The notes below the pieces were generated by a model. The model did not search any database and was not told where the DNA came from. It saw only the letters and a list, made by a program, of their open reading frames with translations. Made by a program: the position numbers and the translations under genes. A stretch of DNA of 64,000 nucleotides from Candidatus Latescibacterota bacterium (GTDB lineage Bacteria; Latescibacterota; UBA2968; UBA8231), in the NCBI GenBank assembly GCA_965261395.1, contig OZ253462.1:5280001-5344000 (forward strand), given 5' to 3'. Below, piece after piece: positions 15,608 through 51,509 of this stretch (its first letter is position 1; each line of letters starts with the position of its first letter).

Positions 15608-15618
15608 CGTGCGGCCCC

Positions 15619-17610: not shown

Positions 17611-17630
17611 GAATCTCTTCCCTCGTCTGC

Positions 17631-19283: not shown

Positions 19284-19370
19284 AAAAAGAGGAGCTAGAC
19301 GGAAGGTCCAGCTCCTCGTAACGAGATATCCTGTCATACGCGTTATCCAGATGCGAAGCAGCGTCGGGAC

Positions 19371-20138: not shown

Positions 20139-20169
20139 AAAATTACAACTCCCTTTTTGCTAGCTGCCG

Positions 20170-20589: not shown

Positions 20590-20596
20590 GCCGCTT

Positions 20597-21016: not shown

Positions 21017-21034
21017 TGCAGCGTCTCTTTCTGC

Positions 21035-21709: not shown

Positions 21710-21757
21710 TACAACCTCCCAGTATTGTGTCCTACCTTGCGTTGCGTTGAAAGCTCG

Positions 21758-24700
21758 CTATAGCCGGTTTTCCACGATCCATTCTCGGTGCATCTTGGCA
21801 AAACTGACTACGTCGGCGTTTTCCGGCTTGTCCCCACCCCTTTCTTCCACTACCTGATAGTTTTCCACGGCCTGCGGCCACTGGCGCGCGATTTCATAGG
21901 CCAGCCCTAGGTTGCAGTACGCGGCCAATTCGGTATAGGTGCCGGGGTACTCGCGAATAATCTCCTGTAGGGCTAGCACAGCCCGGTCGTATTCTTTGGC
22001 TTCAAAGAGCTTCATAGCCTCATTGTAGCTAAAGCTGGCTTGGATCTCGCTTAGCTCTCCCACCAAGGCTGTGGCCCTCGACGCCTCCTCGGAGTCTGGA
22101 TATCGCTCGAGCACTCGCTTGTAGGCCGCCATGGCCTCGTCATAAGACTGGATATTGTAGTAGTAGTCGCCGATGGTAAACTGCGCTTTCGGAGCGAACT
22201 CGCTATTAGGGTAATTGGCGACTAGGTCTTGCATCGCGCCTACTGCTTGCTCCATCTGCTCTTGTTCGACGAAGGACCAAGCCAACGCGTACTGCGCCGA
22301 TCCGCCGTATCGGCCTTGGGGATATTTGGCCAAGAGTGCTTGGTATGCCGGCACAGCCTCGGCAAAGGCCTGCTCGTTGTAGTGGTTTTCGCCAATGAGG
22401 AAAAGCGCTTCTTCCTCGTATTGGGACTGGAGATAGCGCTCGACGAGCGCGGCAAAAGCGGCCGCAGCCTCCTTGAACTGGGTCAGGGCCTGGAGGCTGT
22501 GGGCTAGATAGTACTGGCCGTGAATGCGGTTGGCATTGCGCGGATATTTGTCGACAAAGGCCCTGAAGCTCTTGGCGGCGGTGGCATAGTCGCCGTAGCT
22601 GATTTCGGCAAAGCCCTTGGAGAAGGCCAAGTTGCCACTCTCGCCCGAATTCGGATAGCGCTTGAGACCTTGGGCGAAGATGCGGGCGGCTTCCTCGTAT
22701 TTCTGCTGCTGCAGCAGCGCGTTGCCGATGATGGAATAGGCGCGTTCTTTGCGGTAATAACCAGCTTGATTGTCGTCTTCAAACTGCATCTCGAGGAGCT
22801 GGCGAGCGAAGTTCTCGGCTTGGACGAAGTCCTGCTGATCGTAGTACAGCTCGGTCAGCAGCATGCTAAAGGTGGCCTGCTCCTGGAGGTCGTCCGACGC
22901 GGCGATGAGCTCTCGGTAGTAGCTGGCCGCCTCTTCTTGCCGCCCCAAGCGAATCATACCAGCCCCCAGCGTGCGGAAGGCGCTGTCCTTTATCTGGGGC
23001 GCGGGATCGCTTTCGAGCAGGGCCTTCATATCCTCCAGCGATGTCTCATAGCTTATGCGGGCCTTGGCCGTGTCGCCGACGGCGTCTTGCTGTTTGGCGA
23101 CCTCGTAGTACGCACCGCCGCGGGCCAGCAGCGAATTTTGCAGGATGTGCACGGGCGGATTCAGCGCAATGGCCTGACCCCAAGAGTCAATCGCACCCGC
23201 GAGATTGTCCTCGGCGAAATGCACCCGAGCCAAGGTGTAGTGCATCTGGCCTCTTAGGGTGTCGTCGTCGGCTCGATCCAAGGCGCGAGATAGGGCCTTG
23301 CGCGCCTTTTCGTACTCTTGTTTGCCCATGTAGAACTCGGCCAACTCGACCTGCACAGTCGGCCACTTGTCCCAATCCGCTTCCACCATCTCATAGGCGG
23401 CGATGGCGCTGTCTTGATCCTGGAGGCGCTTGTAGGTAAGGCCCAGCTCCATCCGCGTCGTATTGCGCAGTTCCGAATCCGGAAAGCGGTCAAGGAAGGA
23501 CGTATAGATCTCCTCGGCCCGTTTGAGATCGGATGCAGCATAGGCTATGCGGGCCAACTGCAAAAGGCCGTTGGGGGCCGCCGGATGGTCCGCATACTCA
23601 TCGACTAATCGCTGGTACAGCGGCTGAGCCGCTTCGTTTTTCTTTAGGAGTTGATTGGCAAAGCCGGCGTTAAAAAGCACATCCGGTATCAGGGAATTGT
23701 CCTCGTGCTGGGTCAAGAGCTGATCGTAGCCCTTGAGCGCCTCGGCGATTTCCGCGTTCGCTCTAGCCGGGTCCTCGCTGCGGACCTGCCGCCCATATTC
23801 TTGGTGGCACTGGGCAATGCGAAAGAGAACCTTGTAGCGGTCAAAGCCAATGCGCTGGGCCACATCGCCGTAGGCATTGAGGTAGATCTCGTATTCTTGT
23901 GCCGACTTGAGGTACTCGTCTTGGTCGAAAAGCATCAGGGCAACCGTTAGCTGTGTGCGAGCCTGAAAGAGCTTGTCCTCGACCTTTTCGATGGCGTCCT
24001 TGTACGCGGCGATGGCCGCTGTCGTGCCCTGTTCCTTCTGCACCAACTCGGCGGTGCGGATATAGCTGTTTTGCACCAAGACCGGCTCAGCCACGTATTC
24101 GGCCGGGAGTACGGCATAGGCGGCGAGGGCCTTGGCGACCTCGCCGTTGAGTGCGTAGATATCGCCCTTTTTCAGGTGGGCCTTGGCGACTAGCTCGCGC
24201 GCAGTCTCCTTGACCAAACCCTTGAGCTTGAGGGTGGCCATCTCGATGATTTCTTCCTCGGTCATCTGCGCGAAGTCGTAGCGGGCGATGAGGCGGTCGA
24301 GGTAACTCAGCGCATCTTCGTACTGCCCGAGCTTGTCGTAGCTCTCGGCAATCTGGAAGAGCGAGCGATCGGCGTTGGAGCCTCTCGGGGCCAAGACCAA
24401 CACCTGCTTGAAGCTGGCGATGGCCTCCTCATAGCGCTCCAATTCAAAATAGGACCACGCTCGGTCGTAGTGAACGGACGCCTCGTAGAGGCTGTGGGGG
24501 AAGCTGTGCAGCAGCGCGTCCCCCTCCTCAATGACCTGATCGTACTCCTTGAGTTGGTAACTCGTCTGGATCATCTGGTACTGCGCCATCACTCGAGTGC
24601 GGTCATCGACGCGCTCGTCCGCGGCTAGGCTGCGGAAGTGGTCGCGGCTCTTGTTGAGATCTTGCAGCGCCTCCTCGTAGCGAGCGTCGGCCTCGGTCTC

Positions 24701-25030
24701 CTTTTGCTCTGAGCGCAAAAACTGCGAGCGCTGCAATTTTTCGAGACCCAGCTTGTTGTAGGTATTGCCTAGCTGATAGGTGGCACCCACGCGCACCGGC
24801 AGGATGAACTCGTCAACCGCTACGGTTACATCCTCCACGCTGATCATGGAGTTGCTCTCGGTGGAGAGAATAACCTCATAGCGCTCAATAGCTTTGTCAT
24901 AGGCCCCGAGCGCATAGAGCTTCTGACCTTCCTCAAAGCGGTCTTGCAATTCCACCGGCGAGAAGAAGCGCGTACTCAGGCTGGCGGCCACGCCGACCGC
25001 TGCGACCAGCAGCAGATTTACCAGAATCAT
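21758..25030 (-). CDS. Large tetratricopeptide-repeat protein (CpoB/BamD-like repeats), N-terminal signal or anchor
   Basis: Serial TPRs with YPxS motifs (FVDKYPRN, LERYPDSEEA, IREYPGT). Confidence 0.9.
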   Translation of the reverse strand: MILVNLLLVAAVGVAASLSTRFFSPVELQDRFEEGQKLYALGAYDKAIERYEVILSTESNSMISVEDVTVAVDEFILPVRVGATYQLGNTYNKLGLEKLQRSQFLRSEQKETEADARYEEALQDLNKSRDHFRSLAADERVDDRTRVMAQYQMIQTSYQLKEYDQVIEEGDALLHSFPHSLYEASVHYDRAWSYFELERYEEAIASFKQVLVLAPRGSNADRSLFQIAESYDKLGQYEDALSYLDRLIARYDFAQMTEEEIIEMATLKLKGLVKETARELVAKAHLKKGDIYALNGEVAKALAAYAVLPAEYVAEPVLVQNSYIRTAELVQKEQGTTAAIAAYKDAIEKVEDKLFQARTQLTVALMLFDQDEYLKSAQEYEIYLNAYGDVAQRIGFDRYKVLFRIAQCHQEYGRQVRSEDPARANAEIAEALKGYDQLLTQHEDNSLIPDVLFNAGFANQLLKKNEAAQPLYQRLVDEYADHPAAPNGLLQLARIAYAASDLKRAEEIYTSFLDRFPDSELRNTTRMELGLTYKRLQDQDSAIAAYEMVEADWDKWPTVQVELAEFYMGKQEYEKARKALSRALDRADDDTLRGQMHYTLARVHFAEDNLAGAIDSWGQAIALNPPVHILQNSLLARGGAYYEVAKQQDAVGDTAKARISYETSLEDMKALLESDPAPQIKDSAFRTLGAGMIRLGRQEEAASYYRELIAASDDLQEQATFSMLLTELYYDQQDFVQAENFARQLLEMQFEDDNQAGYYRKERAYSIIGNALLQQQKYEEAARIFAQGLKRYPNSGESGNLAFSKGFAEISYGDYATAAKSFRAFVDKYPRNANRIHGQYYLAHSLQALTQFKEAAAAFAALVERYLQSQYEEEALFLIGENHYNEQAFAEAVPAYQALLAKYPQGRYGGSAQYALAWSFVEQEQMEQAVGAMQDLVANYPNSEFAPKAQFTIGDYYYNIQSYDEAMAAYKRVLERYPDSEEASRATALVGELSEIQASFSYNEAMKLFEAKEYDRAVLALQEIIREYPGTYTELAAYCNLGLAYEIARQWPQAVENYQVVEERGGDKPENADVVSFAKMHREWIVENRL

Positions 25031-25047
25031 GGTGTCAGTCTCCTAGC

Positions 25048-27972
25048 CTAGAACCCGGCCACGATATCAAAGAAGAGGCGCGCGTTGTCAAAGCTATCGG
25101 AAGCGCGCGTGGCATCGTCGTACTCCCGGCTACTTTTGATAAAGCCGAACTGGGAGGCGAGGTTGTAGCCGTAGTGATCTGAGCGGTTGCTCATCATCAG
25201 CACTAGCGTCCACTCCTTAAAGTTATTGTTGTTATCTTTCAGGTCTATATAGGTGTGCCGCCAAAAAGGGAGGCCCTGAAATCCCAGTTGCAGATTGGAC
25301 TTGGCCGTCAGGTCGAAGCGGGTCCTGACAATCGGTGCGTAAATCGAGTACGACTCAATGATGCCGTTGTCTTCGTCCCCCGCGTCTTCGAGTACACTCC
25401 AATGCTCGCGCAACAACAGGTGCTTGAACATCGGGCGGATGTTCAGGTTGCCGGCGTTGATCGTATAGTCGAGCCGGTTGACCATCGTAAAGGTCGAGAG
25501 CACACCCGCTTCCTGTTGGGTGCCGTCGTCGAACTCGTCCTCAGCTTGGCTGTTGCGGATCCACTGGACGTTGTTGATGACGTTGAGGTTGGAAAACTGC
25601 CTAAAGGTCGAACTGATGAACAGGGTATTGACCAAACTATTGCGCATGTTCAGCGGATCGACATCCGGCGGAAAAATCTGCGAATTGAGATCCCGAGCCT
25701 CAATCATTGGACCTTTCAAGTGCGGGACGGGACTGGGTATCCGCTGGGAAAAACCCACGTCTTCCCAGATGTACACGTCGTCGCGGATGTCGTCTTGGAC
25801 CTGCTTGATGTCCTCGTTGATGCGAATTTTCCCCAGATAGGGCGAGATAAAGTTGTGCTCGTAGCGGGCGTACATGGCCTTGGCTTCGCCGCCGCCGGTC
25901 GGCTCCTTCATGGTGTAATAGCCGACAGAAGCCCATTTGCCCCAGCGCCCCAAGCCTTTCTTGGTGGCCACCAAATGGACCCCTTGGCGGTCCCGTGGGT
26001 AGGGATAGTCAGGCAGCGCGTCGTTTTCGCGGTAATCGACTATGCCGTTGTTGTTGAAGTCGATGCCGTAGATGAAATCCGGCGGATCGGCGTCGTAAAA
26101 GAGAATCGGCTCGGTCCAGTCGGGAATGCCGTTGAAATTCTGGTCGCTGTCCGGGATTAGGTCGTTGTTTTCGTCCAGTCCAGGGAAAATGCCCGAATCC
26201 GACTTCTCCGAACTGGGCAGTTCGTTGAGCATCTCGTCTGGCCATTGGTCGTTGTCGTCGTTATCGGTCATCACGGACATTTCCTGCATCTGTGGACACA
26301 CGAAGCAATCGTCGCTGAAGAAGGCCACGCCGCCGCGATCGCTATCGTAGTTGCCGCTGTAGTCCGAGTCTAGGTTGAAAATTTCGCCACCGATCTCGAT
26401 CGGGCCTACTTCCTTTTCGGCCGTGAGGAAATAGCCGAGGGCCTGCTTGCCAAAGCGCTTGCCGGCATTGCTGCCCACCGGGAAGAGGAAGTATTGGGGA
26501 TTGGCGACCAATTCGCCCTTTAATTTTAGCCCTTTGAGGCTTAAGTCCCAGTCCAACCCATAGAGCGCCTGACCGGTGGGGATGCCATAATCAAACTCGA
26601 CCACCTTGCGGCCCGAGTCACTGCCTACGGAGCGCAGGACCGTATAGCCTACCCGGGTCGGATCGAGCAGATCCCACTTGTATTGCAAAAACGGCTGAGC
26701 CTGGGTAGTGAACGGATCGGGCACCACCGGCCACTGATTGAAGGCGTCGGGATTTTCTACCAGCACATCTTCGAGCGGTTTGATTGCGTCGTCAGCTCTC
26801 AGCCCGGTAAAAGGATTGACGTACCGGCTGCCACCCGGAGCGTAGTTGTCGTTCCCTTCGGCCACTTCGTCCACGTTCTTTTGGTGGGCCCGCTGATCGA
26901 AGAACAAGTGCTGTTGGCGCACCAAAATGCGATAGTCGCCCTCGACATCGGCCAAGAAGCGCACGGACTTCATCGTCAGCCCCGGAGCAAGTTCGTTGGG
27001 ATCTGCGGAGTACCCCGCGTCATCCGGCAGGTTGAATTGCGGCATTTGGAAGCGGAAGACCACTTGGTCGCCGCCGGCTATGGTCAGCCCGCCCTCGGCC
27101 CCGCCAACCGGATCAATCATCTTCAGGCTCGAGTCGTACTCGGGATCGCCTTCAATGCTGGTCAGGCGCACCCGCTGCCCCTGCGACTCGCCGATGATCA
27201 CCACATCTACGTCATAGACGGTGGCCGGCCGGCCTATATCGTCGGGCGAATCGTCTTCGACAATGACTTCGATAAAAGAGGGCGGCAGCATGCTGTAGGG
27301 AGTATCTCCCTTGAGAAAGGAGCCATTCTCGTCGGCGGTATTGGCCATGTGCTGATTGAAGTACGTGGCGCCCATGCGCAGCACATTGCCCAGCTTGGTC
27401 TCCCAGTGGCCGCCAAAGATCAACACCGGCGAGGTCTCCCTAGTCGCTTTGAAGGTCGAAAACTTGGCGGCGTTCAACAGGTCGCCGCCTTGGCTCAGCA
27501 TCAGGGTAAACTTGTTGTCCGAGGAAGCGCCGTCGAGTAGAATGCCAAAGAAGCGCGGGTCGCTAAAGGTCAGGTCTGAAAACTTGGCGCGGATATCCTC
27601 ACCTAAGGTCACTCGGTAATTCCAGCCCTTGTACGAGTCGTTGAGCATCACCAAGTTGGCGAACCACCCTAAGTACTGGGCCGTGCGGGTGTTGATATTA
27701 CTTTCTCCAGGGCGGGAAAACTCCCAAGTAAAGACATTGAACCCGCGCGACAGGTAATTGCCTAAGCGGTCGTAGCGATTGCGTGCGTTGATCACCGAAG
27801 GATAGGGATCGTACTCCTTGCGCCCGTAGTTCAAATAAGGTTCGGGATGGCCGAGGTTGAGGAAATCCCGGTTGCGCAGAAAGGTCTGCGCTTCGGCTTC
27901 GGCGCCCAGCATACCCAACCCAACAAACGCTAGTAGCGCGGTCCTCACCAGGCTTTTTCTCGCATTACTCAT
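25048..27972 (-). CDS. Hypothetical ~975-aa putative outer-membrane protein with Asp-rich Ca-binding loops (paralog of 31966-34935)
   Basis: Signal peptide ending AEA-Q; DNDDNDQWPD, PGLDENNDLIPDSDQNFNGIPD, YGIDFNNNG; amphipathic C-terminal strands ending ...FDIVAGF; start 27972 or 27987. Confidence 0.75.
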   Translation of the reverse strand: MSNARKSLVRTALLAFVGLGMLGAEAEAQTFLRNRDFLNLGHPEPYLNYGRKEYDPYPSVINARNRYDRLGNYLSRGFNVFTWEFSRPGESNINTRTAQYLGWFANLVMLNDSYKGWNYRVTLGEDIRAKFSDLTFSDPRFFGILLDGASSDNKFTLMLSQGGDLLNAAKFSTFKATRETSPVLIFGGHWETKLGNVLRMGATYFNQHMANTADENGSFLKGDTPYSMLPPSFIEVIVEDDSPDDIGRPATVYDVDVVIIGESQGQRVRLTSIEGDPEYDSSLKMIDPVGGAEGGLTIAGGDQVVFRFQMPQFNLPDDAGYSADPNELAPGLTMKSVRFLADVEGDYRILVRQQHLFFDQRAHQKNVDEVAEGNDNYAPGGSRYVNPFTGLRADDAIKPLEDVLVENPDAFNQWPVVPDPFTTQAQPFLQYKWDLLDPTRVGYTVLRSVGSDSGRKVVEFDYGIPTGQALYGLDWDLSLKGLKLKGELVANPQYFLFPVGSNAGKRFGKQALGYFLTAEKEVGPIEIGGEIFNLDSDYSGNYDSDRGGVAFFSDDCFVCPQMQEMSVMTDNDDNDQWPDEMLNELPSSEKSDSGIFPGLDENNDLIPDSDQNFNGIPDWTEPILFYDADPPDFIYGIDFNNNGIVDYRENDALPDYPYPRDRQGVHLVATKKGLGRWGKWASVGYYTMKEPTGGGEAKAMYARYEHNFISPYLGKIRINEDIKQVQDDIRDDVYIWEDVGFSQRIPSPVPHLKGPMIEARDLNSQIFPPDVDPLNMRNSLVNTLFISSTFRQFSNLNVINNVQWIRNSQAEDEFDDGTQQEAGVLSTFTMVNRLDYTINAGNLNIRPMFKHLLLREHWSVLEDAGDEDNGIIESYSIYAPIVRTRFDLTAKSNLQLGFQGLPFWRHTYIDLKDNNNNFKEWTLVLMMSNRSDHYGYNLASQFGFIKSSREYDDATRASDSFDNARLFFDIVAGF

Positions 27973-28023
27973 GGCAGCTATCCTCATTCAGTATAGAGAT
28001 TCCGTCTTCAGTCGCATTCCAAC

Positions 28024-28884
28024 TCAGCGCTGGCGATAACCAACGCTGAACCGATGTACACCTCCATAGCCGGAGAGGTGTAGCGGGTAGGAATAAGCAT
28101 AATCGAAATGCCATTGCTTATAGTTGTGGCCAAGGCCCACATTGAACTCTCTGTTGTCAAAACCTGTACCAACCGCCGCCCCGCCCATGCGGAACCGAGC
28201 GCCGTTGAGACTCACCGTCCGCGTCTCGAAACCCACTCTGAACTCGGTTTGCCCATCGCGGCGCTCAATGTCGAGTAGGACTTCCCGCCCCGTCAAGTTG
28301 AGCAAGGCCGCTGCGACCACGGCCGGCTTTTCTTTGCCTGCAGCTTGGCCACCCGCTGCGATATTCGCGCCGTTTAAGCCTTTGGCGACCAACCCCAAGC
28401 GCAGGTACGCTCGCGGGTGAATGAAACCCACTTCCCAAGTCGCCCCTACATCGAGGTGCCAAGCCCGGTGCGACAGATCGCCAGCTTTCCAAGCGCTGGT
28501 GCGCAAGCCGCCGCCTAAGGCGAATCGCTCGTTCAACGGCCGGCCATAGCCCAAGGCAATTACTTCTTCGCGCCAGCCATCGGCACCGAGAAACGAAAGG
28601 CCCAGTTGCAAACCGCCGCCCCGCAAGGGGCCGGTTACCGACAAACCGTTTAAGGCTGGGCTTTGGTCCAACCCGGGATAGAGCAACGCGTGCGTCGTGC
28701 CTGCCTGCCATTTTTGCTGCTGGGCATTGCCGGCCGGATTGTACCAAACGGCCTCAGCCGTCTGAATACTGGCGGCGAAAGCCCCGCCCAACGCCGTGCT
28801 CTGGGCCCCCTGTGCCGCAAATTCAAAAGCAGCACCAACCGGGGAGACGAGAGCCAGCAATAGGACGCTAGTACGCCACCACAA
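28024..28884 (-). CDS. PorV/PorQ/PorP-like outer-membrane beta-barrel
   Basis: Signal peptide; GAQSTALGGAFAA...AVWYNPAG; C-terminal FDYAYSYP...GVHRFSVGY. Confidence 0.78.
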   Translation of the reverse strand: MWWRTSVLLLALVSPVGAAFEFAAQGAQSTALGGAFAASIQTAEAVWYNPAGNAQQQKWQAGTTHALLYPGLDQSPALNGLSVTGPLRGGGLQLGLSFLGADGWREEVIALGYGRPLNERFALGGGLRTSAWKAGDLSHRAWHLDVGATWEVGFIHPRAYLRLGLVAKGLNGANIAAGGQAAGKEKPAVVAAALLNLTGREVLLDIERRDGQTEFRVGFETRTVSLNGARFRMGGAAVGTGFDNREFNVGLGHNYKQWHFDYAYSYPLHLSGYGGVHRFSVGYRQR

Positions 28885-30526
28885 AAGTGCCCCGGCGCGC
28901 CTTGCCGCTTTCTTCTATCATAACCTCGTACAGATAAAGCCCCGGCACGACAACGCGACCGCTGCCATCGCGGCCGTCCCACTCGAACTGATAGGTGCGG
29001 GCGCTTCCTGTCTGCGCTAATTGGCGAACCGGCCGACCGGTCAAATCGTAAATTTTTAGCACGACTTCCCGGCCCGCTTCGATATTGCCGACGACCAAGG
29101 CAAAGCGCGCATACTCGTCGGCAAACGGCGAGAACGGGCGCGGCTGCACCTGCACTGCTCCCAAAAGCTGCAACGGCGTCCCCGCAGCCAGTACCGTCCA
29201 ACTGGTGCCCGGCATTTCCCGCCCCTGCTGCCAGTTCACGTAGCCGTCTCTGTCGCCTTGGGCCTTGTTGCCGGCCGAGAAACGCATCGCGGTCTTGTCG
29301 CGCACAAAGAGCGCCGGCCCCTCTATTTCGACGGTCGCCATTGCGCTGATTTGCTCGCTAGGTGCAAGCTCTATCAGCATCCCCTCCCGATCCGGCGTCG
29401 GGCCCCAGGTGTAGTCGTCTGTGGGCACGAGTTCTCGACCATCGACGCGCACGGCTGCTACGCGGAGCAAGGGTCCTTGTACGCGCAAGAGATCCACCCC
29501 GTAATCATCGACGCCAGCCGCGATTTCTACTCGGTAGATCAGCGTCGCTTCCTCGCCCTTGCGCAGCGCATCGGATGCGACCACCTCCCCCATGAGCTGT
29601 TGGGCGACCAAGACGGGATCATAGTCAATGGCCATGCGCTTGAGCGCCGGGCTGACAAAGGGGGCTGAGTTCGTCAGGCGAGCCCGATATGCCAACCGCG
29701 CAACCGGTTCGTCCCCGCTATAGAAAAATTTCCCGTCCGTGTGCGCCGCAACCCTTCCCCAAGGCTCCTCTGCTCCCTCTGCAGCGGCTCCGCGCACCTG
29801 CAGCTCAATGCCCGTGCGCTCCGGGCGATCTAGTTGCCAGCGGATCTGCCCTACGTTGACCGGAGTAGGCAGAGCGAAACTGTCCTCTATGAAGCCTTCG
29901 CTAACATAGCCCACGCCAAACACCTCGATTTCCCCGATAGCGACCCAATTGCTGCGGTCTTGGCGGATCAGTGTCAGCCGCACGAAGCGACCCTCGCGCG
30001 GAATCGCCGCGCCGCGCTCGTCGGTTGCGGCCCAAGTAGAATCTGCGCTCGTATCTACATTGAGGACGAAATTGTCCGGCTGCTCCGCCAAGAGGTGCCA
30101 GACTTGCGGCGCCGCTTGGGTGGCTGTTTCGAGCCTGTACCCACGCACGAAGTACTCGGGCTGGTTCAGCGCCGTCTCGCCGGCTAGCACTCGCACCCGC
30201 TTGATCGCCCGGTCCAAGCCGAGATCGACGGTAAACTGCTTGTCGAACACGTGATTGGTACCCGAAATCCACTCGCTCCGCACGAGGTCAATCGCGCCGT
30301 CGGTTAGGGGCACAGGCTTGTCAAAATCGTCTATCACCGATCGTCCTAAGGCCACGTTTACATCCTCGTCCAAATGCGCCAGAATGACGAGGCTATCTGG
30401 ATGCACCTGTACGCCTTGGGTCGTTCCCAAGGCAAATGTATCGACCGCATCCACTATCCAAGTGTTTAACTCAGCACGGCACGGACTGAATTCAAGCAAT
30501 AGCAAGAGTGCGCCCAGCTTCAGCAC
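28868..30526 (-). CDS. Secreted protein with discoidin/galactose-binding-like domain and FlgD-Ig / gliding-motility-type C-terminal domain
   Basis: FTVDLG..RAIKRVRV...GRFVRLT...IGEIEVFG; C-terminal PRPFSPF...KIYDLTGRPVRQL...WDGRDGSGRVVVPGLYLYEV...FVVAY. Confidence 0.8.
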   Translation of the reverse strand: MLKLGALLLLLEFSPCRAELNTWIVDAVDTFALGTTQGVQVHPDSLVILAHLDEDVNVALGRSVIDDFDKPVPLTDGAIDLVRSEWISGTNHVFDKQFTVDLGLDRAIKRVRVLAGETALNQPEYFVRGYRLETATQAAPQVWHLLAEQPDNFVLNVDTSADSTWAATDERGAAIPREGRFVRLTLIRQDRSNWVAIGEIEVFGVGYVSEGFIEDSFALPTPVNVGQIRWQLDRPERTGIELQVRGAAAEGAEEPWGRVAAHTDGKFFYSGDEPVARLAYRARLTNSAPFVSPALKRMAIDYDPVLVAQQLMGEVVASDALRKGEEATLIYRVEIAAGVDDYGVDLLRVQGPLLRVAAVRVDGRELVPTDDYTWGPTPDREGMLIELAPSEQISAMATVEIEGPALFVRDKTAMRFSAGNKAQGDRDGYVNWQQGREMPGTSWTVLAAGTPLQLLGAVQVQPRPFSPFADEYARFALVVGNIEAGREVVLKIYDLTGRPVRQLAQTGSARTYQFEWDGRDGSGRVVVPGLYLYEVMIEESGKARRGTFVVAY

Positions 30527-30527
30527 T

Positions 30528-31184
30528 TCAGAATAGCAGTTTCCGCGTCAGGCTGGTCACCACGGCAATCGCGAGGGCCTCCTCCAACTCCCGCGAGTTG
30601 AAGGTCATTACAATGCCGGCATCAATCGGACTTTTCTTTTTCACTTTGCCGGTTTTAAGATCCCTGACTGAAATCTCGACCTGCACTCTCTGCGTTTGCG
30701 GAGAGAATACTTTGCGCACCCGCTGACTGGTAATCACAGCCGTGCCGCTAATTTCCAAGTCGGCCTCGTCCGAGTCCGCGGCAACTAACGCGAAGGGATT
30801 ACTCACTTGTCGCACGCTGTCTCCGTCTAGCACCTCGACCCGATCCGTCTGGGTGAAGATCCGCACCTTGTCCTTGCGCAGTTCGCGCAACAAAGCCCCC
30901 GACAAATCCTCGATGCGCGAAGGCCGAGTAATCTGCACCAGTTTATTTCCCTGGCTGGCGAGGGCATTAGTAACGTACTGGGTGCCCTGGCTACTGGCCG
31001 AATTGGCGGCCCTCGGATCAACCACGTTGGCCTTGCTCTCGACCGGGAATTCCTTGACGTATATTTTGATCGGCATCGACGGCGGATTGGGCAAACTGGT
31101 GTCCCTGAGTGCCTCGTATTTCAAGGCACAGCCCGTCGAGCCGACAAGCAGCGTCACCCCGAGGTATTTGACCATCTTTTTCAT
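30528..31184 (-). CDS. Hypothetical lipoprotein
   Basis: MKKMVKYLGVTLLVGSTGC lipobox; tightly packed in operon. Confidence 0.8.
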   Translation of the reverse strand: MKKMVKYLGVTLLVGSTGCALKYEALRDTSLPNPPSMPIKIYVKEFPVESKANVVDPRAANSASSQGTQYVTNALASQGNKLVQITRPSRIEDLSGALLRELRKDKVRIFTQTDRVEVLDGDSVRQVSNPFALVAADSDEADLEISGTAVITSQRVRKVFSPQTQRVQVEISVRDLKTGKVKKKSPIDAGIVMTFNSRELEEALAIAVVTSLTRKLLF

Positions 31185-31964
31185 CTACTTATTCTCCACC
31201 CAACGCACTCCGTGATCGACATTGAAGTTGAATCTCAGATCGGTAAATTCCACTGGATTGCCGTATCCTACTTGAAATTGATCAAAGGCCAGAATGAAGT
31301 CGTTTACTTCGAGAGTGAGTGACTTCGTCTCTGCGGGCAGCGGTGGAAAGGTCAACTTGCCGCTGTATCTGGAGCCTTTGCGCACGGGCTTTTCCCGGTA
31401 GTACTCGCTCCTGGTCCAGATCGGATTGCGGTCCAAGCTGGCGTGATAGCGCACATTGCCTTCTTGTCCCCCCCACTTCAAATAGGAATAGTCGAAGAAC
31501 TCGTCCTTGTCGTACCAACCTCCTGCCCCTTGGCGACAGAGCAGTCGGCTGCCGTCGTCCAAGCGCAGAATGGTCTGCGTGGGATCTAGTTCCACCCGCT
31601 CTCGAGTGCGATTGATAACCGTCACTTCAAAAACGGTCCACAGGGGCGGCGTATAGTCCAAGCCGGAAATTTCGACTCCCGTGAGCGTATAGGGCGTGAA
31701 GCGAGGGTCGTATTCGGCGTCGAGCATGGCATCGTCGTAGAACTTGACCTTGACTTGCACCCCTTTCTCGCTCCACACGACCGAGCTGTCGATCGGGTCG
31801 ATGTAATAGGTCTCCCCATCGGGCAGGATCGGCTCCAACTTGATAAAGTACTCCCGCTGCGAATGCGATTCGAGAGATTTGATGGTAGCGCATCCTCCAG
31901 TAGCCAACGCCAAGCACAGAAGGACGTGAATGTATTTTGCGATTGGTCTCATCTGCATTCGCAC
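31185..31964 (-). CDS. Hypothetical lipoprotein (paralog of 19371-20138)
   Basis: Lipobox TGGC; IDPIDSS, YTPPLWTVFEVTVINRT..VELDP. Confidence 0.8.
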   Translation of the reverse strand: MRMQMRPIAKYIHVLLCLALATGGCATIKSLESHSQREYFIKLEPILPDGETYYIDPIDSSVVWSEKGVQVKVKFYDDAMLDAEYDPRFTPYTLTGVEISGLDYTPPLWTVFEVTVINRTRERVELDPTQTILRLDDGSRLLCRQGAGGWYDKDEFFDYSYLKWGGQEGNVRYHASLDRNPIWTRSEYYREKPVRKGSRYSGKLTFPPLPAETKSLTLEVNDFILAFDQFQVGYGNPVEFTDLRFNFNVDHGVRWVENK

Positions 31965-31965
31965 C

Positions 31966-34935
31966 TTAGAAGGGTGATATCAGCTCCACGAAGAGAATGC
32001 CCTGCTTGGAGTCGGGCCGCCCTTCATGGCTAAAGTCCCGCCGCGTGCGCTGGTAGCCGAAGAATATCGAATTGTCGCGGATGCCAAAGTAATCTGCGGT
32101 GATGCTCAGCATGGCCAGATAATCGGTCTGGCTGTACGTCCCATCTTCAAAGGCGCGATCCCAGTGCTTAAACGGCAGCAAGGGCAGCCCCTGCACACCT
32201 AGCTGAAAGCGGGTCTTGGGCGTGAGCTTGTACTGCCCCATTACGATGGGGATGAAGTCGCTGTACGATTTCCGCGGCGTATCTTCGCTGTCAACCTGCT
32301 CAAAGATCGTCCGATGCTTTAACTTAGGCGTGACGCTGAAGGCACCCCAGCTATGGGTATAGTCGATCTTGTTGACAACGGAAAAACGCGAGCGCACGTC
32401 TTGGGGCTGCAACAGCCCGCTGCCGTCTTCAAGCTCAATTTCGGCTTGGCTGTTGCGCTGCCACAGGAAGCCGTTTTCAATGTTGAAATCGCGGAAGCCC
32501 TGATAGGTGCTGTCAAAAAAGAGGAGATGCACAAAGCTGTCGCGCATCAACAGCCCGTCCGGCGTCGCCGGACGCCAAAAACCCGCACGCTCGGGCGGGC
32601 CATCAGGCTCGTTTAACCAGCTAATGACCTCGATATCGTCAATGGGCACTTGGTACACATAGGTGTGATCCGGTATGTCGTCTTTGACCTGCTTGGCATC
32701 GTAGTTAATCCTGAGTGAGCCAACACCGCGCTTTTCCAACTCATAGGCGTAGCGGAAGTAAAGCCCTTTGGATTTACCTAGGCCAGCGATCTGACTGTTG
32801 TCGTAGCGACCTATGCTGATGAACTCGCCCAAGCGCCCTAAGTGGTCGTAGCGGAGAAAGATATGCTGGCCCTTCTGATCGCGTGGATAGGGATAGTCCG
32901 GCTTATCGTCATTCTCGCGGAGGTCGGGCACGTTGTTGTTGTTGAAGTCGATGCCATAGACAAATTCGGGCGGCTCTGAATCGTAGGTTAGAAACGCCTC
33001 TTCCCAGTCAACAATGAAATTCTCGTTGCGATCCATATCTGGGATGTTATCGACGTTTTCGTCGAGGCCGGGGTACACTTGGGCGTTGGGAAAGCCCGGA
33101 TACAGCGTGCGCGGCTCGGCGGTAGCCGTATCGTCGCTATCGCTGTCGGGGAAGCGATCATGATCGTCGTTGTCCTCGTGGATGGGATACTCCTCGGTGA
33201 CTGTAGAGATTCTCTCGCCGGGAGCAGGCTGCCCATCGTAGTGGAAAGCCATGCCGCCTCGGTAGCTGTCGTAGCCGCCGCCGTAGTCTGGATCCATGCG
33301 GTATATCTCGCCGCCCAGCGCCAGACCGCTGGCTAGGTCCTTGATGCCCTTAACCCACCATGCCAAGGCGCGCTCACTACTGCGCTCGCCTTCGTTATTG
33401 CCGATCGGGAACATGAAATTTTGCAGGTTGTGCGCCACTTCGCCGCTGAGATCTAGCCCGACCAAATCAACCTGATAGTTGATCGAGGCCAAACTCTGCC
33501 CGGTGGGGATGCCATAGTCAAAAGAGACCATCCGCCGGTTGGCACCACTGCCGTCGCTGCCATCGGCGCGGATGATGGTGTAGTAGAGTTCCTCATCTTC
33601 GTCTGTGTACCATTTGAACGGACGCCGTATGGCCCGCTCACCGGCGCTGGCGATGGGAGCTGGCCAAGCCGACTCGGTGATCGCCGCGTTGCCCCGGCGA
33701 TCAATATTGAAGAAGTCGTGGGTCTGGCTGACACCGACCCGGTAGTCGCCGGCCACATCAGCGACAAAGCGCGCCGAGCGCACCGTCACGTCCGGTGGGA
33801 TAACAAAGGTGTAAACCACCGGCACCTTGCCCTCGGCCTCGCGCCCGCCGCCGGCGCGGACGGTACCGCCCTCGGGTGGCCCAGCTTCTAGCAGTGGGTC
33901 GTAATCCGGATCGTCGTCGAGGCTGGTCAGGCGCACCGGCTCTGTGTTGCGCTCACCCTCGAGGACGATGTCCACGCCATAGACAATGGCATTGGCCCGT
34001 TCGTCGTCAGGCGAATCATCGGCCACGAAGACGCGGATGGTCTTGGGGCCGAGCATCTCATAGGGCAAATCGCCGCGCCAAGCGCTGGTGCGCGACAGCG
34101 CCGGCGAAGCCATAATCTGGTTGATTAGCGTCCCACCAACGCTGGCGAATCGACCTACTTCGTGCTGATAGTGGCCGCCAAAGAGCATCACCGGTGAGTT
34201 GTCCCAAGCGTCGTCGCCTTCTTGGCCAATTGCCCATTTGGAGAATAGCTGAGCACCAGAGTGATCGCCACCGCGAGAGTACAACAGAGTCGCCCGGTCG
34301 CGCTCCTTGTAGTTGAGGTCCATGCGCAGCGCACTCATCTTGCTGTTGACCAGCGTGAGCGGCGTAAAGATGGTGCGAATATCTGTAGCACCTCCTTGTG
34401 TGCCCACGTTGCCCAACGTGGCGGTCCAGTGCAAATCCTTGTGAGTATAGTGGCCGATCCGAAACGCCCGATACTTGTGGTCGATATAGCTATACCCACT
34501 AAAATCGTTGCCACTGCGCGACTCTTCTATCGTCAGGACCCGCTGATAGCCTCCGCCCATGTAGTTGCCCATCCGATCCCAACCCACGTTGCGGGCTTTC
34601 AGAGGACGGCCCGACGGAGTGGCCCAAGCAACGGTCTCCCGGTAGTACGCAATGTACTTTTCGTCGGCGTAGTTGAGATAGGGGACGCTGATTGCAGTGT
34701 TGAGGAAAGCCCTCCCCAGTCCTCGGTCATAGCGGTCTTGGGGACCGCGTAGAAAGGGGGGGCGCTTTTTCCACGGAGGATCTTGCGGCGTGCCGGGAGT
34801 AGGATCGTAATAGGGCAGCGGACCGGCGGATTCGGGGTGGCGCTGCGCCTCTACTGGCGCGGACAGGCCAGCCCAAGCCAGCGCGAACAAGACCACCCAG
34901 CCCTTGACAACACGGCATTTTAGAAAACACAGCAT
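31966..34935 (-). CDS. Hypothetical 989-aa putative outer-membrane protein with Asp-rich loops (paralog of 25048-27972)
   Basis: Signal peptide ending VEA-Q; DNDDHDRFPD, PGLDENVDNIPD, YGIDFNNNN, PDYPYPRD; ends ...FVELISPF. Confidence 0.75.
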   Translation of the reverse strand: MLCFLKCRVVKGWVVLFALAWAGLSAPVEAQRHPESAGPLPYYDPTPGTPQDPPWKKRPPFLRGPQDRYDRGLGRAFLNTAISVPYLNYADEKYIAYYRETVAWATPSGRPLKARNVGWDRMGNYMGGGYQRVLTIEESRSGNDFSGYSYIDHKYRAFRIGHYTHKDLHWTATLGNVGTQGGATDIRTIFTPLTLVNSKMSALRMDLNYKERDRATLLYSRGGDHSGAQLFSKWAIGQEGDDAWDNSPVMLFGGHYQHEVGRFASVGGTLINQIMASPALSRTSAWRGDLPYEMLGPKTIRVFVADDSPDDERANAIVYGVDIVLEGERNTEPVRLTSLDDDPDYDPLLEAGPPEGGTVRAGGGREAEGKVPVVYTFVIPPDVTVRSARFVADVAGDYRVGVSQTHDFFNIDRRGNAAITESAWPAPIASAGERAIRRPFKWYTDEDEELYYTIIRADGSDGSGANRRMVSFDYGIPTGQSLASINYQVDLVGLDLSGEVAHNLQNFMFPIGNNEGERSSERALAWWVKGIKDLASGLALGGEIYRMDPDYGGGYDSYRGGMAFHYDGQPAPGERISTVTEEYPIHEDNDDHDRFPDSDSDDTATAEPRTLYPGFPNAQVYPGLDENVDNIPDMDRNENFIVDWEEAFLTYDSEPPEFVYGIDFNNNNVPDLRENDDKPDYPYPRDQKGQHIFLRYDHLGRLGEFISIGRYDNSQIAGLGKSKGLYFRYAYELEKRGVGSLRINYDAKQVKDDIPDHTYVYQVPIDDIEVISWLNEPDGPPERAGFWRPATPDGLLMRDSFVHLLFFDSTYQGFRDFNIENGFLWQRNSQAEIELEDGSGLLQPQDVRSRFSVVNKIDYTHSWGAFSVTPKLKHRTIFEQVDSEDTPRKSYSDFIPIVMGQYKLTPKTRFQLGVQGLPLLPFKHWDRAFEDGTYSQTDYLAMLSITADYFGIRDNSIFFGYQRTRRDFSHEGRPDSKQGILFVELISPF

Positions 34936-35087: not shown

Positions 35088-36047
35088 CTACTGGACGAAG
35101 GTCTCCTTTACACGGCCCCAAGAATCTTCTTCGACCGCTGCCGCTGTGCCTGTCGGGCCAGCCGGCGTATCCACAAAGACATAGTTGGCAAATTCGGACT
35201 GGTTGCCGCCCGCCCAACCCACGCACTGAATCTGGCCACCATAGGCATCTTCGCCATCGGGATCGACCGGCAGCCAAGTAAAGCCCATCTCAGAGCCAGT
35301 CGTGGGGGCTTCAAAGAGGTTCCCATTGCGCAGGAAAGTGTCCCACTCCATCCGCCCCTCGATCACGTAGTCGGCGTCGCCCTCGTCGCCAAACTCATCG
35401 CCGGCGTCGCGGAAGCCGTACTCAAAGCCCTCAATCGCATCGGGGTCGTGAACGTCCACGCGCTGGTTCTGCACGGTGGTGATGTAGCAGACGGACAGTT
35501 CGTTCGAGCCGAAAGGCACAGCCATAAAGTTGACCACATTCAGGTTGACGTACTCGCCGGTCGGGTCGCCACCCGGGTGATCTTCGTTGTTCATGTCGAG
35601 GTAGAGAGACATGGAGTCGCGCTCCCACCAAGCCCGTGCCTCACCGCCACCCTCGGTGTCGCGGACATTATCGCTAACCTCGGTGAGGTAGTATAGGGCA
35701 TCGTCGTCCCACGCCTGCAAGATCACCGAAGAGAAATCGGCGTCGGTACGGCCCTCACCAGCTACTTCGGTCTCGCCGTTTTCATTGAGCTGGTTAGCGC
35801 TTACCTCGCTGGATCCCTGCTCGATATTGCGCCAACCATATTCTTGACCGTCGAGCTGAATCTGGCTTGGCGAGCAGGGAAACTCTAGCGCACCAGTCCA
35901 CTCGTCGGCAACTGTTGCACGGTCGCCATCGAGCGTGGGCGCTTGGGTAAACTTGGGCAAGTCGAAGTAGCGTATCGGCGGCTGGGCATTGGCCAGCGTA
36001 GTAACGCAAAGGGCCGCGATCGCAGCCAAAAGAGTCAACTTCTTCAT
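35088..36047 (-). CDS. Secreted acidic CBM9/DOMON-like sugar-binding protein with C-terminal TxxAVE..WGRVK tail
   Basis: Signal peptide ANA-Q; PTLDG...EW, AWDDDALY...VSDN, WERDSMSLYLD, YVIEGRMEW; RBS aggag. Confidence 0.78.
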   Translation of the reverse strand: MKKLTLLAAIAALCVTTLANAQPPIRYFDLPKFTQAPTLDGDRATVADEWTGALEFPCSPSQIQLDGQEYGWRNIEQGSSEVSANQLNENGETEVAGEGRTDADFSSVILQAWDDDALYYLTEVSDNVRDTEGGGEARAWWERDSMSLYLDMNNEDHPGGDPTGEYVNLNVVNFMAVPFGSNELSVCYITTVQNQRVDVHDPDAIEGFEYGFRDAGDEFGDEGDADYVIEGRMEWDTFLRNGNLFEAPTTGSEMGFTWLPVDPDGEDAYGGQIQCVGWAGGNQSEFANYVFVDTPAGPTGTAAAVEEDSWGRVKETFVQ

Positions 36048-36217: not shown

Positions 36218-37249
36218 GTGAAATGTCTCCTCCTCATTGGATTGGCCTCCGTCCTATTCGGCGGCCGACCGGCCAACGCCCAGCCGCATATCTACACTAT
36301 CGGCCTAGTCTTTACCGATCTCGTCGATCAAGAGATCCTGCCTATCCACCTCGCCGAGCAACATCCCCTCTTGGTGCAGGAAATCGACCAAGCGATTAGA
36401 GACATCTTCGCCAGCTTGGGCCGCTTTCGCGCCGTGCGTTTGCAGAGTGTCGGCGAAGCCCACGATCCCGTTTATGGAGAGTGGGAATCCGTCGATTACA
36501 TCGCCCACTTCATTCTCAACAAAGCCTATAAGACATACCACAACCAAGTTATTCATTACGAAGATTTGGGTCTATTCGACGACGGAGGACCAAGCGCAGA
36601 CCGTTCTTATGAAGTTATTTCTCTGCCCGCCTTCGTCGGCCAACTCGAAGTCAAGCTAGTGGATCCGCGCCGGAGCAAGATTTTCTGGTCGGACTTGCGC
36701 GACTCTTCGGCCACTATACCTTATGACAAACAGCTATACCTTTATAATACTTGGAAGTATCCGGGTGCGTCGCATCCTGGTTTGACACGCGCTTTTTTAG
36801 CCGATCTTCTCCGTTTGCAAATGGCCAATCCCGCCACAGAACGCGCACTGAACGTCGCCGAGCGTTGGTTCGTCTCCAAGCCCAGTAGCGACCTCGCCGT
36901 TGCCCGGGAGTTGTTAAAGGGGCTGGCGGACAATCTAGCGCCCGACCTAGACGCGAATTTGCCGTTAGAGGGCCACATAGCAGCCCTATTGCCCGAGCAG
37001 AAAGGCAAACTCCACGTCCGGCTAAACATCGGTGCTCGGCACGGGCTGACGACGCGAATGCGGTTCGATGTGTGGCGGCCTAGACCATCGCAGCAGAAAG
37101 TGGGGCAAATAGAGGTGGTTGAAATGGATTCCACCACGGCTATTGCTCGGCTGCGAAAACTAGACAAGAAGCTCAAAAAACGCGGGGATGGTCTTCAGAT
37201 CCAAGACCGGGTCATTTCCCCAAAACGCCCTTCGAGGAGGTCATTATGA
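36218..37249 (+). CDS. Secreted hypothetical protein, CsgG/FlgT-like architecture
   Basis: Signal peptide ANA-Q; C-terminal LNIGARHGL...FDV...KVGQIEVVEMDSTTAIAR...LQIQDRV resembles the FlgT C-terminal domain. Confidence 0.6.
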   Translation: MKCLLLIGLASVLFGGRPANAQPHIYTIGLVFTDLVDQEILPIHLAEQHPLLVQEIDQAIRDIFASLGRFRAVRLQSVGEAHDPVYGEWESVDYIAHFILNKAYKTYHNQVIHYEDLGLFDDGGPSADRSYEVISLPAFVGQLEVKLVDPRRSKIFWSDLRDSSATIPYDKQLYLYNTWKYPGASHPGLTRAFLADLLRLQMANPATERALNVAERWFVSKPSSDLAVARELLKGLADNLAPDLDANLPLEGHIAALLPEQKGKLHVRLNIGARHGLTTRMRFDVWRPRPSQQKVGQIEVVEMDSTTAIARLRKLDKKLKKRGDGLQIQDRVISPKRPSRRSL

Positions 37250-42866: not shown

Positions 42867-42978
42867 CGCGCGTACCTCCACAGAGATTTTGTTCGGCAAA
42901 AGTATAGCGCACAACGCGGCGTGAATCAACCACCTTGTGCCGCTGCCACTCGCCAATTCTCCCTTCAGTTCGTACACT

Positions 42979-51458: not shown

Positions 51459-51509
51459 ACACCCGGGGCCCGGCGGCTCCGGGTGATTTTTCTTTCTTTG
51501 GAGAGCTAT

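Follow-up and report, generated by a model that had tools for sequence, protein, structure and literature searches.

Predicted outer-membrane beta-barrels with calcium-type inserts and their motor-linked gene neighbourhood in Latescibacterota

The described systems closest to the locus reported here are built around large outer-membrane beta-barrels. SlpA/OmpM (PF21620; 8ae1, 7zgx, 8agd) is a very large single-chain barrel of 28-30 strands with big insertions, an SLH domain and a coiled-coil stalk, and it forms a homotrimer from a single gene. LptD is a 26-strand barrel plugged by the lipoprotein LptE, and TonB-dependent transporters are 22-strand barrels linked to an ExbB/ExbD-type motor. The extended translocon of type IX secretion (T9SS; SprA-PorV-PPI-SprE, 8gl8) is organised around SprA, a protein of ~2300-2400 amino acids (aa) with a 36-strand barrel. 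Here we describe two genes, P1 and P2, from a stretch of 64,000 nucleotides of a Candidatus Latescibacterota bacterium (contig OZ253462.1, positions 5,280,001 to 5,344,000), referred to as the window throughout. Their products are very probably outer-membrane barrels with calcium-type inserts, which resemble each of these systems in some respects and differ from each in others.

P1 (P0001) is an open reading frame (ORF) of 979 aa, counted from its first ATG, at 25048..27987 on the minus strand, and P2 (P0002) is an ORF of 989 aa at 31966..34935 on the same strand. The second Met of P1, M6 at 27972, is likely to be the true start, because the closest homologues measure 972-974 aa. A preliminary description of this DNA had reported two collinear paralogues of ~980 aa with 12 shared ordered motifs and a terminal Phe in both; it had recorded neither the minus strand of the two genes nor the conserved cluster around them. 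The paralogy is borne out by pairwise alignment, with BLASTP giving 344/992 identities (35%) at E 2e-157 between residues 40-979 of P1 and 75-989 of P2, a likeness that runs from end to end and lies far above chance. Each of the motifs is found once per protein and in identical order, for example DDSPDD at 245/306, FDYGIPTGQ at 465/472 and REND..PDYPYPRD at 653/673 of P1/P2. The translations end in ...FFDIVAGF (P1) and ...FVELISPF (P2), confirming the terminal Phe. No third family member is present in the 64-kb window by tblastn.

Both proteins start with what reads by eye as a Sec signal peptide. In P1 it spans aa 1-33 (27889-27987, minus strand), with a positively charged start, a hydrophobic core and a cleavage site between ...AEA and Q, whereas cleavage in P2 would fall between ...VEA and Q; an A-x-A site followed by Q is conserved among orthologues. 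Directly after the signal peptide, P1 carries a conserved N-terminal segment (aa 34-77, 27757..27888, minus strand). Its mature N-terminus, Q-T-x-L-R-N-R-D-F-L-N-L-G...Y-L-N-Y...R-Y-D-R-L-G, is common to the orthologues and to other paralogue clades, with Y51, Y54 and G76 retained in at least 90% of 57 sequences (G76 in 57/57) and D73 invariant in a 17-row alignment. The mature N-terminus of the P2 orthologues, Q-R-H-P-E-S-x-G, is likewise invariant (14/14). We speculate that these conserved N-termini serve as docking peptides; the conserved segment of the barrels contains no recognised TonB box.

At the opposite end, the last strand of P1 (aa 966-979, 25051..25092, minus strand; 966-978 in the structural model) and that of P2 (31969-32007, minus strand) both end in Phe and are putative signals for the beta-barrel assembly machinery (BAM). 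An aromatic last residue is found in 88 of the 147 family members of at least 800 aa (F 65, Y 16, W 7). The end is non-aromatic in 59 of these long members, and some of their tails carry a few additional residues beyond the motif.

Structure prediction offers a more detailed view of the fold. The AlphaFold2 (AF2) model of P1, built from alignment A1, has a mean per-residue confidence (pLDDT) of 84.7, a pTM of 0.84 and 524 residues with a pLDDT of at least 90, and it is almost wholly beta. Foldseek against the PDB returned 113 matches at E<=0.001, and every listed one is an outer-membrane barrel, with probabilities of 0.57-1.00, mostly at or near 1.00. SlpA leads (8ae1_A, E 2.3e-10), followed by MtrB (6r2q_B) and SDBC entries; LptD (8h1r, 8h1s, E ~1e-7), the PapC and FimD ushers, many TonB-dependent transporters and the porins OmpT, OmpG, Occ and BpsOmp38 are also among the matches, and SprA (8gl8_A) stands at rank 25 with a TM-score of 0.23/0.11.

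Read manually from the DSSP string of the model and not from coordinates, P1 has 7 long strands in 78-214, 4 in 469-539 and 13 in 667-978, ~24 in total. In outer-membrane barrels as a class the C-terminus is periplasmic. Counting from there along the same string, the predicted turns on the periplasmic side are all 2-7 residues long, and the long loops (215-468, 254 residues; 540-666, 127 residues; 733-782, 50 residues; 167-187, 21 residues) all fall on the outer side. By strand parity, both large inserts would face outwards. In the model this is the usual outer-membrane protein pattern of short turns and long loops. The large beta-barrel family with soluble insertions that had been proposed for this pair is thereby supported in silico, by the AF2 model, the all-barrel Foldseek result, the signal peptide and the aromatic end. 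Neither a soluble fold nor a full-length match to a characterised outer-membrane protein family was found, the two outcomes that had been set against the proposal beforehand.

With SlpA, the best fold match, P1 and P2 have in common a very large single-chain barrel interrupted by big insertions; the excerpted text of the SlpA study places metal-binding sites in those insertions and a beta-signal at the C-terminus (PMC9388160). They differ from SlpA in having neither an SLH domain (no Pfam match at E<=10) nor a coiled-coil stalk (no long helix in the P1 model), in the ~24 strands of P1 as against 28-30, and in a TM-score of only 0.17. Unlike the single-gene homotrimer of SlpA, the barrels here are encoded as 2-3 tandem paralogues together with tetratricopeptide-repeat (TPR), lipoprotein and motor partners. 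The barrel model of Deinococcus SlpA, PF21620 (SlpA_C), finds no match in P1 or P2 themselves, yet it is the sole Pfam model touched by any family member scanned. Its matches, in 11 of 51 members (2/5 and 9/46), are sub-threshold, scoring 16.5-30.2 bits against a gathering cut-off of 35, and always span the same ~80 residues, those of the FDYGIPTGQ strands (profile positions ~226-322 of 656).

The two main inserts of P1 display very different degrees of conservation. Insert 1 (aa 215-460, 26608..27345, minus strand) is a beta-sandwich (strands 238-360) followed by a helical part (365-445) according to DSSP of the model, and the helical part is mostly missing from P2, as the alignment gaps show. 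This is the most variable region of the protein, with a mean majority fraction of 0.24 as against 0.37-0.44 in the barrel parts. The Asp/Asn-rich module (aa 575-666, 25990..26265, minus strand), in contrast, is the most conserved segment of the family at 0.63, compared with 0.24-0.44 elsewhere. Its 92 aa include 19 D, 11 N and 11 P, and it has no regular secondary structure at a pLDDT of 75-93. The corresponding module of P2 (aa 588-686, 32878..33174, minus strand) is collinear with it by motif positions, and 14 P2 orthologues show no variation in D588-D597, D625-D643 and D663-D686.

EF-hand ligands are spaced at positions 1-3-5-9-12, with Gly at 6 and Glu at 12. Two minus-strand loops within the P1 module fit this spacing, D615-x-N-x-N-G-x-x-D-x-x-E626 (aa 615-626, 26110-26145) and D643-x-N-x-N-G-x-x-D-x-x-E654 (aa 643-654, 26026-26061). 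In both loops 54-57 of 57 rows have N, N, D and E at positions 3, 5, 9 and 12. At position 1, all 57 rows have D in loop 643-654, and loop 615-626 has D in 28 rows and N in 29; Gly6 is less conserved (23/57 and 37/57). They differ from true EF-hands in that the model shows no flanking helices and in that position 8 of the first loop is Pro. Loops of the DxDxDxxPD type lie at aa 575-584 and 605-613 of P1 (minus strand), and the family consensus at 605-613, D-E-D-G-D-G-I-P-D, resembles bacterial TSP3-like repeats. The Pfam models for EF-hand, TSP_3 and dockerin give no match even at E<=10. We infer on good grounds that the module binds Ca2+. In the preliminary description the Asp-rich inserts had been called calcium-binding; the support for this is the loop pattern and its conservation.

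The family went unrecognised in the preliminary description, and it remains so in the Pfam, NCBIfam and PDB sequence searches, which place neither P1 nor P2. Pfam yields no family for either protein even at E<=10 and NCBIfam none at E<=0.01; the best phmmer matches to PDB sequences are at chance level (E 0.32 and 0.51), and the 57-sequence profile (A1) finds a single chance match in the PDB (E 0.21). In contrast, when 1.84 billion cluster representatives were searched exhaustively with HMMER, P1 and P2 fell into a family of 475 proteins at E<=1e-3 (288 of them reaching E<=1e-10 and 138 reaching E<=1e-30), counted as clusters at 50% identity, and a distant subgroup (query P0128) alone accounts for 929 clusters at 90% identity and E<=1e-10. 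Searching a large protein collection with the A1 profile recovers the same 73 proteins as the single-sequence search. All source names shown for family members read "hypothetical protein". In the ESM Atlas the 30 clusters nearest to the whole protein are equally unnamed, the nearest named cluster (DUF6029, score 0.89) is a lead only, and insert 1 alone (aa 215-460) gives no usable match.

The organisms named are Candidatus Latescibacteria/Latescibacterota, Handelsmanbacteria, metagenome-assembled genomes labelled "Gemmatimonadetes/Gemmatimonadota", or simply "bacterium". Among GTDB genomes, taken one per species, 589 candidate stretches yielded 459 confirmed relatives, and the best 58 of these 459 matches, many of them close relatives, are the basis of all locus-level counts given here. 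They add one bin labelled Planctomycetota, one "Candidatus Zipacnadia" and two "uncultured bacterium" bins. As far as named records show, the family is restricted to Latescibacterota. A literature search by listing for Latescibacter and beta-barrel, in a scope that excluded subscription journals, returned nothing on it, and an in-silico study of the phylum from 2015 refers, in its excerpted text, to no more than non-specific porins and receptors with a Plug domain (PMC4454575). Subscription journals excepted, both the barrel family and its gene cluster are undescribed in the literature searched. We conclude that the family is real, conserved and unannotated, and that it represents a new architectural variant of outer-membrane barrel.

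A FastTree phylogeny of 93 barrel sequences from the loci separates a P1-type clade (39 rows) from a P2-type clade (42 rows), each with 100% local support and with a similar internal branching order; the remaining 12 sequences fall into at least four other paralogue clades. On this tree P1 and P2 are ancient paralogues. A P2 orthologue lies within 5 kb for all 33 of the 33 P1 orthologues that have at least 7.3 kb of upstream sequence. This co-occurrence reflects the shared ancestry of close genomes and is no evidence of P1-P2 contact, such as the heterodimer put forward in the preliminary description.

Most of the functional information is found beyond the barrels themselves, in the conserved cluster around them, whose genes are tightly packed or overlapping on the minus strand. 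The first gene of the cluster (35088..36047) encodes a secreted CBM9-like protein of 319 aa (Pfam CBM9_1 E 1.3e-9, 38.6 bits, cut-off 23.4), which is syntenic in orthologous loci and also occurs in a paralogous cluster, L049. P2 is directly followed by two lipoprotein genes, g259 (259 aa, 31185..31964), with a conserved lipobox Cys, and g218 (218 aa, 30528..31184), whose lipobox Cys is conserved in 37 orthologues and which has no Pfam or NCBIfam match. A 552-aa protein comes next (28868..30526), combining a discoidin-like (F5/8 type C) region with a C-terminal FlgD_ig/T9SS-type sorting-like domain. FlgD_ig scores 30.3 bits (cut-off 27), and F5_F8_type_C, CHU_C and Por_Secre_tail are sub-threshold; a paralogue in locus L058 reaches 36.8 bits for F5_F8_type_C. 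Elsewhere in the window, a 392-aa protein at 1765-2943 (minus strand) carries an fn3 domain and a C-terminal FlgD_ig, and its tail is 46% identical to that of the 552-aa protein; from sequence, the FlgD_ig tail has the look of a domain that this organism uses repeatedly for sorting or anchoring. The last gene before P1 (28024..28884) encodes a small barrel of 286 aa of the PorV/PorQ/PorP-SprF type, with family matches that all lie below cut-off (NCBIfam PorV_fam E 6.5e-12, T9SS_PorP_fam E 2.7e-5; Pfam PorP_SprF E 0.004).

Directly after P1 lies the gene of a 1090-aa TPR protein (21758..25030). Besides TPR families it matches TIGR02795 (YbgF/CpoB TPR) with 212.5 bits in 6 stretches, shows BamD/YfiO-like stretches and gives a sub-threshold PorW/SprE match (115 bits, cut-off 250); its N-terminus is conserved, uncharged and hydrophobic, as expected of a signal peptide or membrane anchor. 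It is followed by a TolQ/ExbB-like gene (21035-21709, Pfam MotA_ExbB E 7.7e-29) and two TolR/ExbD-like genes (20597-21016 and 20170-20634, Pfam ExbD E 5.6e-26 and 1.8e-28). The gaps from the PorV-like gene to ExbB are 17-48 nt. The motor genes score somewhat higher on TolQ/TolR than on ExbB/ExbD models, all below equivalog cut-offs; indeed, the TPR, PorV/PorP and TolQ/TolR matches to named systems all lie below curated cut-offs, repeat-level matches excepted. In L049, the ORF at 19403-20512 combines MotA_ExbB and ExbD domains in 369 aa, either as a natural fusion or through an assembly frameshift.

Downstream of the motor genes lies a third lipoprotein gene, g255 (255 aa, 19371..20138), with a lipobox; its AF2 model (pLDDT 85.0) is a beta-sandwich into which a helical part is inserted. 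With 33% identity, g255 is a paralogue of g259. None of the three lipoproteins has a Pfam or NCBIfam match. For g255 there is no PDB profile match either, and its model finds no PDB fold at E<=0.001, the best being YjhA (3cfu_B, 2e-3). The encoding of a giant barrel together with a lipoprotein recalls LptD-LptE, but P1 and P2 have no OstA/LptD domain match in Pfam or NCBIfam, and the partner lipoprotein, unlike LptE, is a beta-sandwich without a significant PDB match. Two identities considered for g255 were set aside: it is not recognisable as LptE-like or SusD-like, having no family or significant fold match, and despite its position after ExbD it is not TonB, being a lipoprotein without a TonB_C domain.

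Two further syntenic genes, possibly on a separate transcript, follow on the minus strand: a prolyl isomerase with two parvulin-type regions (17631-19337, Rotamase families in Pfam) and a 663-aa polytopic membrane protein, g663 (15619-17610), which is 76-98% identical in orthologous loci. g663 has no Pfam match and a weak likeness (E 0.003) to a DUF6785/DUF6784 protein of the window at 9700-11604 (minus strand). The strongest terminator-like element of the region, a 12-pair hairpin (7 G-C) followed by TTTTT, lies at 19289-19317 (minus strand), 54 nt past the stop of g255 and within the 5' end annotated for the isomerase ORF. From its position, the operon may end after g255 and the isomerase may start downstream of 19337. 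A promoter and terminator scan of 15000-34900 found no excess over shuffles (5 vs 6.4 and 23 vs 18.3).

The order of the cluster genes is kept in loci down to ~50% identity. The TPR gene directly follows the P1 orthologue in 40/40 cases, and a TPR homologue follows each of 5 runs of other paralogues. In the same way g259 directly follows the P2 orthologue (36/36), and within 3 kb the TPR gene is accompanied by a g255- or g259-like gene in 40/41 loci and by ExbB in 35/41. Some genomes have further barrel copies elsewhere: L049 and L057 hold three in tandem, L041 and L043 hold two, and L052 and L058 a single one. In L049 the three barrels are found with a DUF6785/DUF6784 membrane protein, a prolyl isomerase, a 1085-aa TPR protein, a g255-like protein, a CBM9-like protein, DUF4159, ExbB and ExbD, and another TPR protein; the gene of the membrane protein (L049:332-2362), a true DUF6785/DUF6784 gene, flanks this paralogous cluster. 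L052 and L058 each combine an FG-GAP protein, DUF4159, a discoidin and FlgD_ig protein, one barrel, a 1040-aa TPR protein and a g255-like lipoprotein. We consider this recurrence of the same parts in distant paralogous clusters (~30% identity), in other arrangements, more telling than the ortholog counts.

A candidate for the transducer of motor energy lies divergent from the cluster, on the plus strand at 37246..38460. This 404-aa protein (Pfam DUF4159 E 7.9e-10) consists of a short cytoplasmic N-terminus, one membrane helix, a K/P/R-rich linker and a periplasmic DUF4159 domain. The N-termini of TonB and TolA have a comparable layout, with an S-x3-H motif in the membrane helix. In paralogues encoded near barrels in other loci (L049:18097-19401, L052:6591-7904, L058:6625-7929) the helix contains S-x3-H and the linker is Pro-rich, and the DUF4159 gene of L049 immediately precedes ExbB/ExbD. 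A DUF4159 gene is located upstream of the cluster in 22 of the 30 loci with enough flank. Complex prediction for DUF4159 aa 150-404 with P1 35-80 or P2 31-100 returned a score of 0.00, "no answer", which speaks neither for nor against binding. Our literature search on DUF4159 returned the Pfam database paper only, and that on DUF6785 returned nothing; a TonB-like role, if true, would be the first functional lead for DUF4159. Repeat proteins of the FG-GAP/ASPIC (UnbV) type are encoded near the cluster in the window (39446-41125 and 42937-45258, plus strand), and FG-GAP proteins lie just upstream of the DUF4159 gene in L052 (4639-6540) and L058 (4455-6587).

The combination of a barrel linked to an ExbB/ExbD-type motor, a protein of TonB-like layout, a conserved N-terminal segment and frequent fold matches is shared with TonB-dependent transporters. 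The locus differs from them in that the cluster holds no Plug (PF07715), TonB_dep_Rec (PF00593) or TonB C-terminal domain, that the candidate transducer ends in DUF4159, and that P1 has ~24 strands, not 22. Whether the barrels belong to a motor-linked envelope complex with the TPR protein, the lipoproteins and the TolQR/ExbBD-type motor is, from sequence, evenly balanced in our judgement; the case for it is made because the genetic linkage recurs in independent paralogous clusters. Taken as a whole, the locus is tentatively best read as encoding calcium-stabilised outer-membrane channels of a proton-driven envelope machine, a reading that we favour while placing it short of an even chance. In such a machine, the last strand ending in Phe would be the signal for insertion by BAM, and several Ca2+ ions would hold the acidic module rigid as a cap or plug above a very wide pore. 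The outer-membrane end of the machine would consist of the barrels and their lipoprotein partners (g259 and g218 following P2, g255 downstream of P1). The 1090-aa TPR protein would be a periplasmic scaffold, and the TolQ/ExbB protein with the two TolR/ExbD proteins would be a proton motor supplying the energy, which the TonB-shaped DUF4159 protein might relay.

What such a machine would move is a more doubtful matter. Uptake of a bulky substrate, as opposed to export or scaffolding, is a possibility that we favour with considerable reserve, because the cluster holds CBM9-like and discoidin-like proteins and, at its edge, a polytopic inner-membrane protein, and because the DUF4159 protein is a TonB-like candidate for the transducer. 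At the surface, the CBM9-like and discoidin-like proteins might then capture a glycan or other polymer for energised uptake. The boldest version would be an undescribed, Latescibacterota-specific machine driven by proton motive force, in which hetero-oligomeric Ca-capped barrels, linked to a TolQR/ExbBD-type motor by a poly-CpoB-like TPR scaffold and a new TonB analogue headed by a DUF4159 domain, move large polymers across the outer membrane. We regard this version as unlikely; if true, it would use 2-3 barrel paralogues per machine and present a third solution beside TonB-dependent transporters and T9SS.

A number of observations weigh against the channel-machine reading. On the side of the barrels, query-normalised TM-scores to known barrels are low (0.11-0.24); together with the all-barrel matches, they indicate a clear fold class with no close structural relative. 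A crude check of alternating hydrophobicity does not separate the membrane strands of the model from its insert strands, and strand number, barrel closure, sidedness of the inserts and any plug are all read from the strand string. On the side of the cluster, Pfam and NCBIfam find no Plug, TonB_C or TonB-dependent receptor domain, Pfam finds no glycoside hydrolase or other hydrolase and no sugar-pathway or catabolic gene in the operon, and the matches of the TPR protein to YbgF, BamD and PorW are repeat-level and non-specific. ExbB/ExbD are absent between the TPR gene and g255 in 6/41 loci (e.g. L026-L028), a DUF4159 gene is missing from the available flank in 8/30, and the window copy of DUF4159 has no His in its membrane helix. 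The neighbourhood counts are, moreover, inflated by the shared ancestry of the 58 loci.

The best placed of the competing explanations is a static envelope scaffold, with abundant, SlpA-like structural barrels whose lumen is filled by metal-stabilised insertions, and which, together with the TolQR-like motor and the CpoB-like TPR array, would stabilise or tether the outer membrane or anchor a surface layer without any transport. It would account for SlpA as the best fold match and for the recurrent sub-threshold PF21620 matches, and the 3-5 paralogues seen per genome would fit major structural proteins. The slightly better scores of the motor as TolQ/TolR than as ExbB/ExbD and the six YbgF/CpoB-like TPR stretches point in the same direction, and in its excerpted text the SlpA study argues for a scaffold role with a pore filled by metal-site insertions (PMC9388160). 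However, the barrels contain no SLH, coiled-coil stalk, OmpA-like or other peptidoglycan-binding domain, no TolA, TolB or Pal homologue is found in the cluster by Pfam or NCBIfam, and the CBM9-like, discoidin-like and polytopic membrane proteins are left unexplained. We hold a scaffold to be unlikely.

Somewhat less likely is a secretion, surface-display or gliding apparatus, in which the barrels would be translocons or platforms that put sorting-domain proteins and lipoproteins onto the cell surface or shift them along it. The Myxococcus Agl-Glt system contains one TolQ-like and two TolR-like proteins, TonB-like proteins, TPR proteins, outer-membrane barrels and a lipoprotein, and the motor composition of one TolQ-like and two TolR-like proteins recurs here. 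The locus resembles the T9SS extended translocon in having a giant barrel together with a PorV/PorP-like one, in its prolyl isomerase and TPR protein (the latter with the sub-threshold PorW/SprE match mentioned above), in a cargo-like protein with a T9SS-type C-terminal domain (CTD) and in a proton motor of the MotA/ExbB kind, and SprA is among the fold matches. Between P2 and P1, the FlgD_ig/CTD-tailed protein is followed by the PorV/PorP-like barrel, and the excerpted text of one study documents the pairing of CTD protein and PorP-like protein for type B CTD proteins of T9SS (PMC9143113). This pair is, however, absent from the triple-barrel clusters of L049 and L057. Neither SprA nor another core model of the T9SS (Pfam, NCBIfam) matches the barrels in sequence, which, at ~980 aa, reach only 40% of SprA length; the motor is TolQR/ExbBD-like and not GldLM, the TPR and PorV matches are below cut-off, the window contains no GldK/L/M/N-like gene, and nothing in the literature searched, subscription journals excepted, links Latescibacteria to type IX secretion.

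It is improbable that P1 and P2 are ordinary passive porins, large channels for general diffusion or for specific substrates, whose neighbours are unrelated genes conserved through the close kinship of the genomes compared. Many of the compared loci are indeed at least 89% identical to the window, OmpT, OmpG, Occ and BpsOmp38 are among the fold matches, and non-specific porins are what the phylum study speaks of in its excerpted text (PMC4454575). Yet independent paralogous clusters, at ~30% identity and with another gene order, contain the same set of parts; the genes are tightly packed or overlapping, and ~24 strands with insertions of 250 aa and 127 aa are far from the 14-18 strands of diffusion porins. 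That the proteins are soluble periplasmic or secreted, beta-rich calcium-binding proteins is very improbable, since, even with a hydrophobicity check that is not clear-cut and a barrel closure resting on the strand string instead of coordinates, all listed Foldseek matches are membrane barrels, mostly at probability ~1.00, and the proteins show the canonical short/long loop pattern, a terminal aromatic strand and the recurrent SlpA-barrel match.

The window holds several other features apart from the cluster. An 842-aa protein at 57305-59833 (minus strand) combines Calx-beta with an autotransporter beta-domain and is a calcium-linked outer-membrane protein unrelated to the barrel family. A 1550-aa protein at 3585-8237 (minus strand) is an unusual fusion that joins a peptidase M28 region to the C-terminal domain of an FtsX-like permease. 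The segment 8001-10000 has a G+C content of 0.49, compared with ~0.60 elsewhere, and may be a small toxin-antitoxin-like insertion; its plus-strand ORFs are 8457-8939, without a family, and 8936-9538, a PIN_12 domain protein. A class A RNase P RNA lies at 51087-51458 (plus strand, 307 bits) and a tRNA-Pro (TGG) at 53529-53606 (plus strand). An ORF call at 51330-52703 runs into the RNase P RNA; in the shared stretch it probably does not represent a gene.

For the Latescibacterota, which are widespread and uncultured, gene lists are all that is known of the cell envelope. The family described here gives them several predicted giant outer-membrane barrels per genome that are unnamed in databases, and its conserved calcium-type module provides a handle for biochemistry and structural work. 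The repeated genetic linkage suggests an energy-coupled outer-membrane process whose parts differ from those of the Ton, Tol and type IX machineries. Its confirmation would extend the known range of ways in which outer-membrane processes are powered, and it would assign a first function to DUF4159 and possibly to DUF6785.

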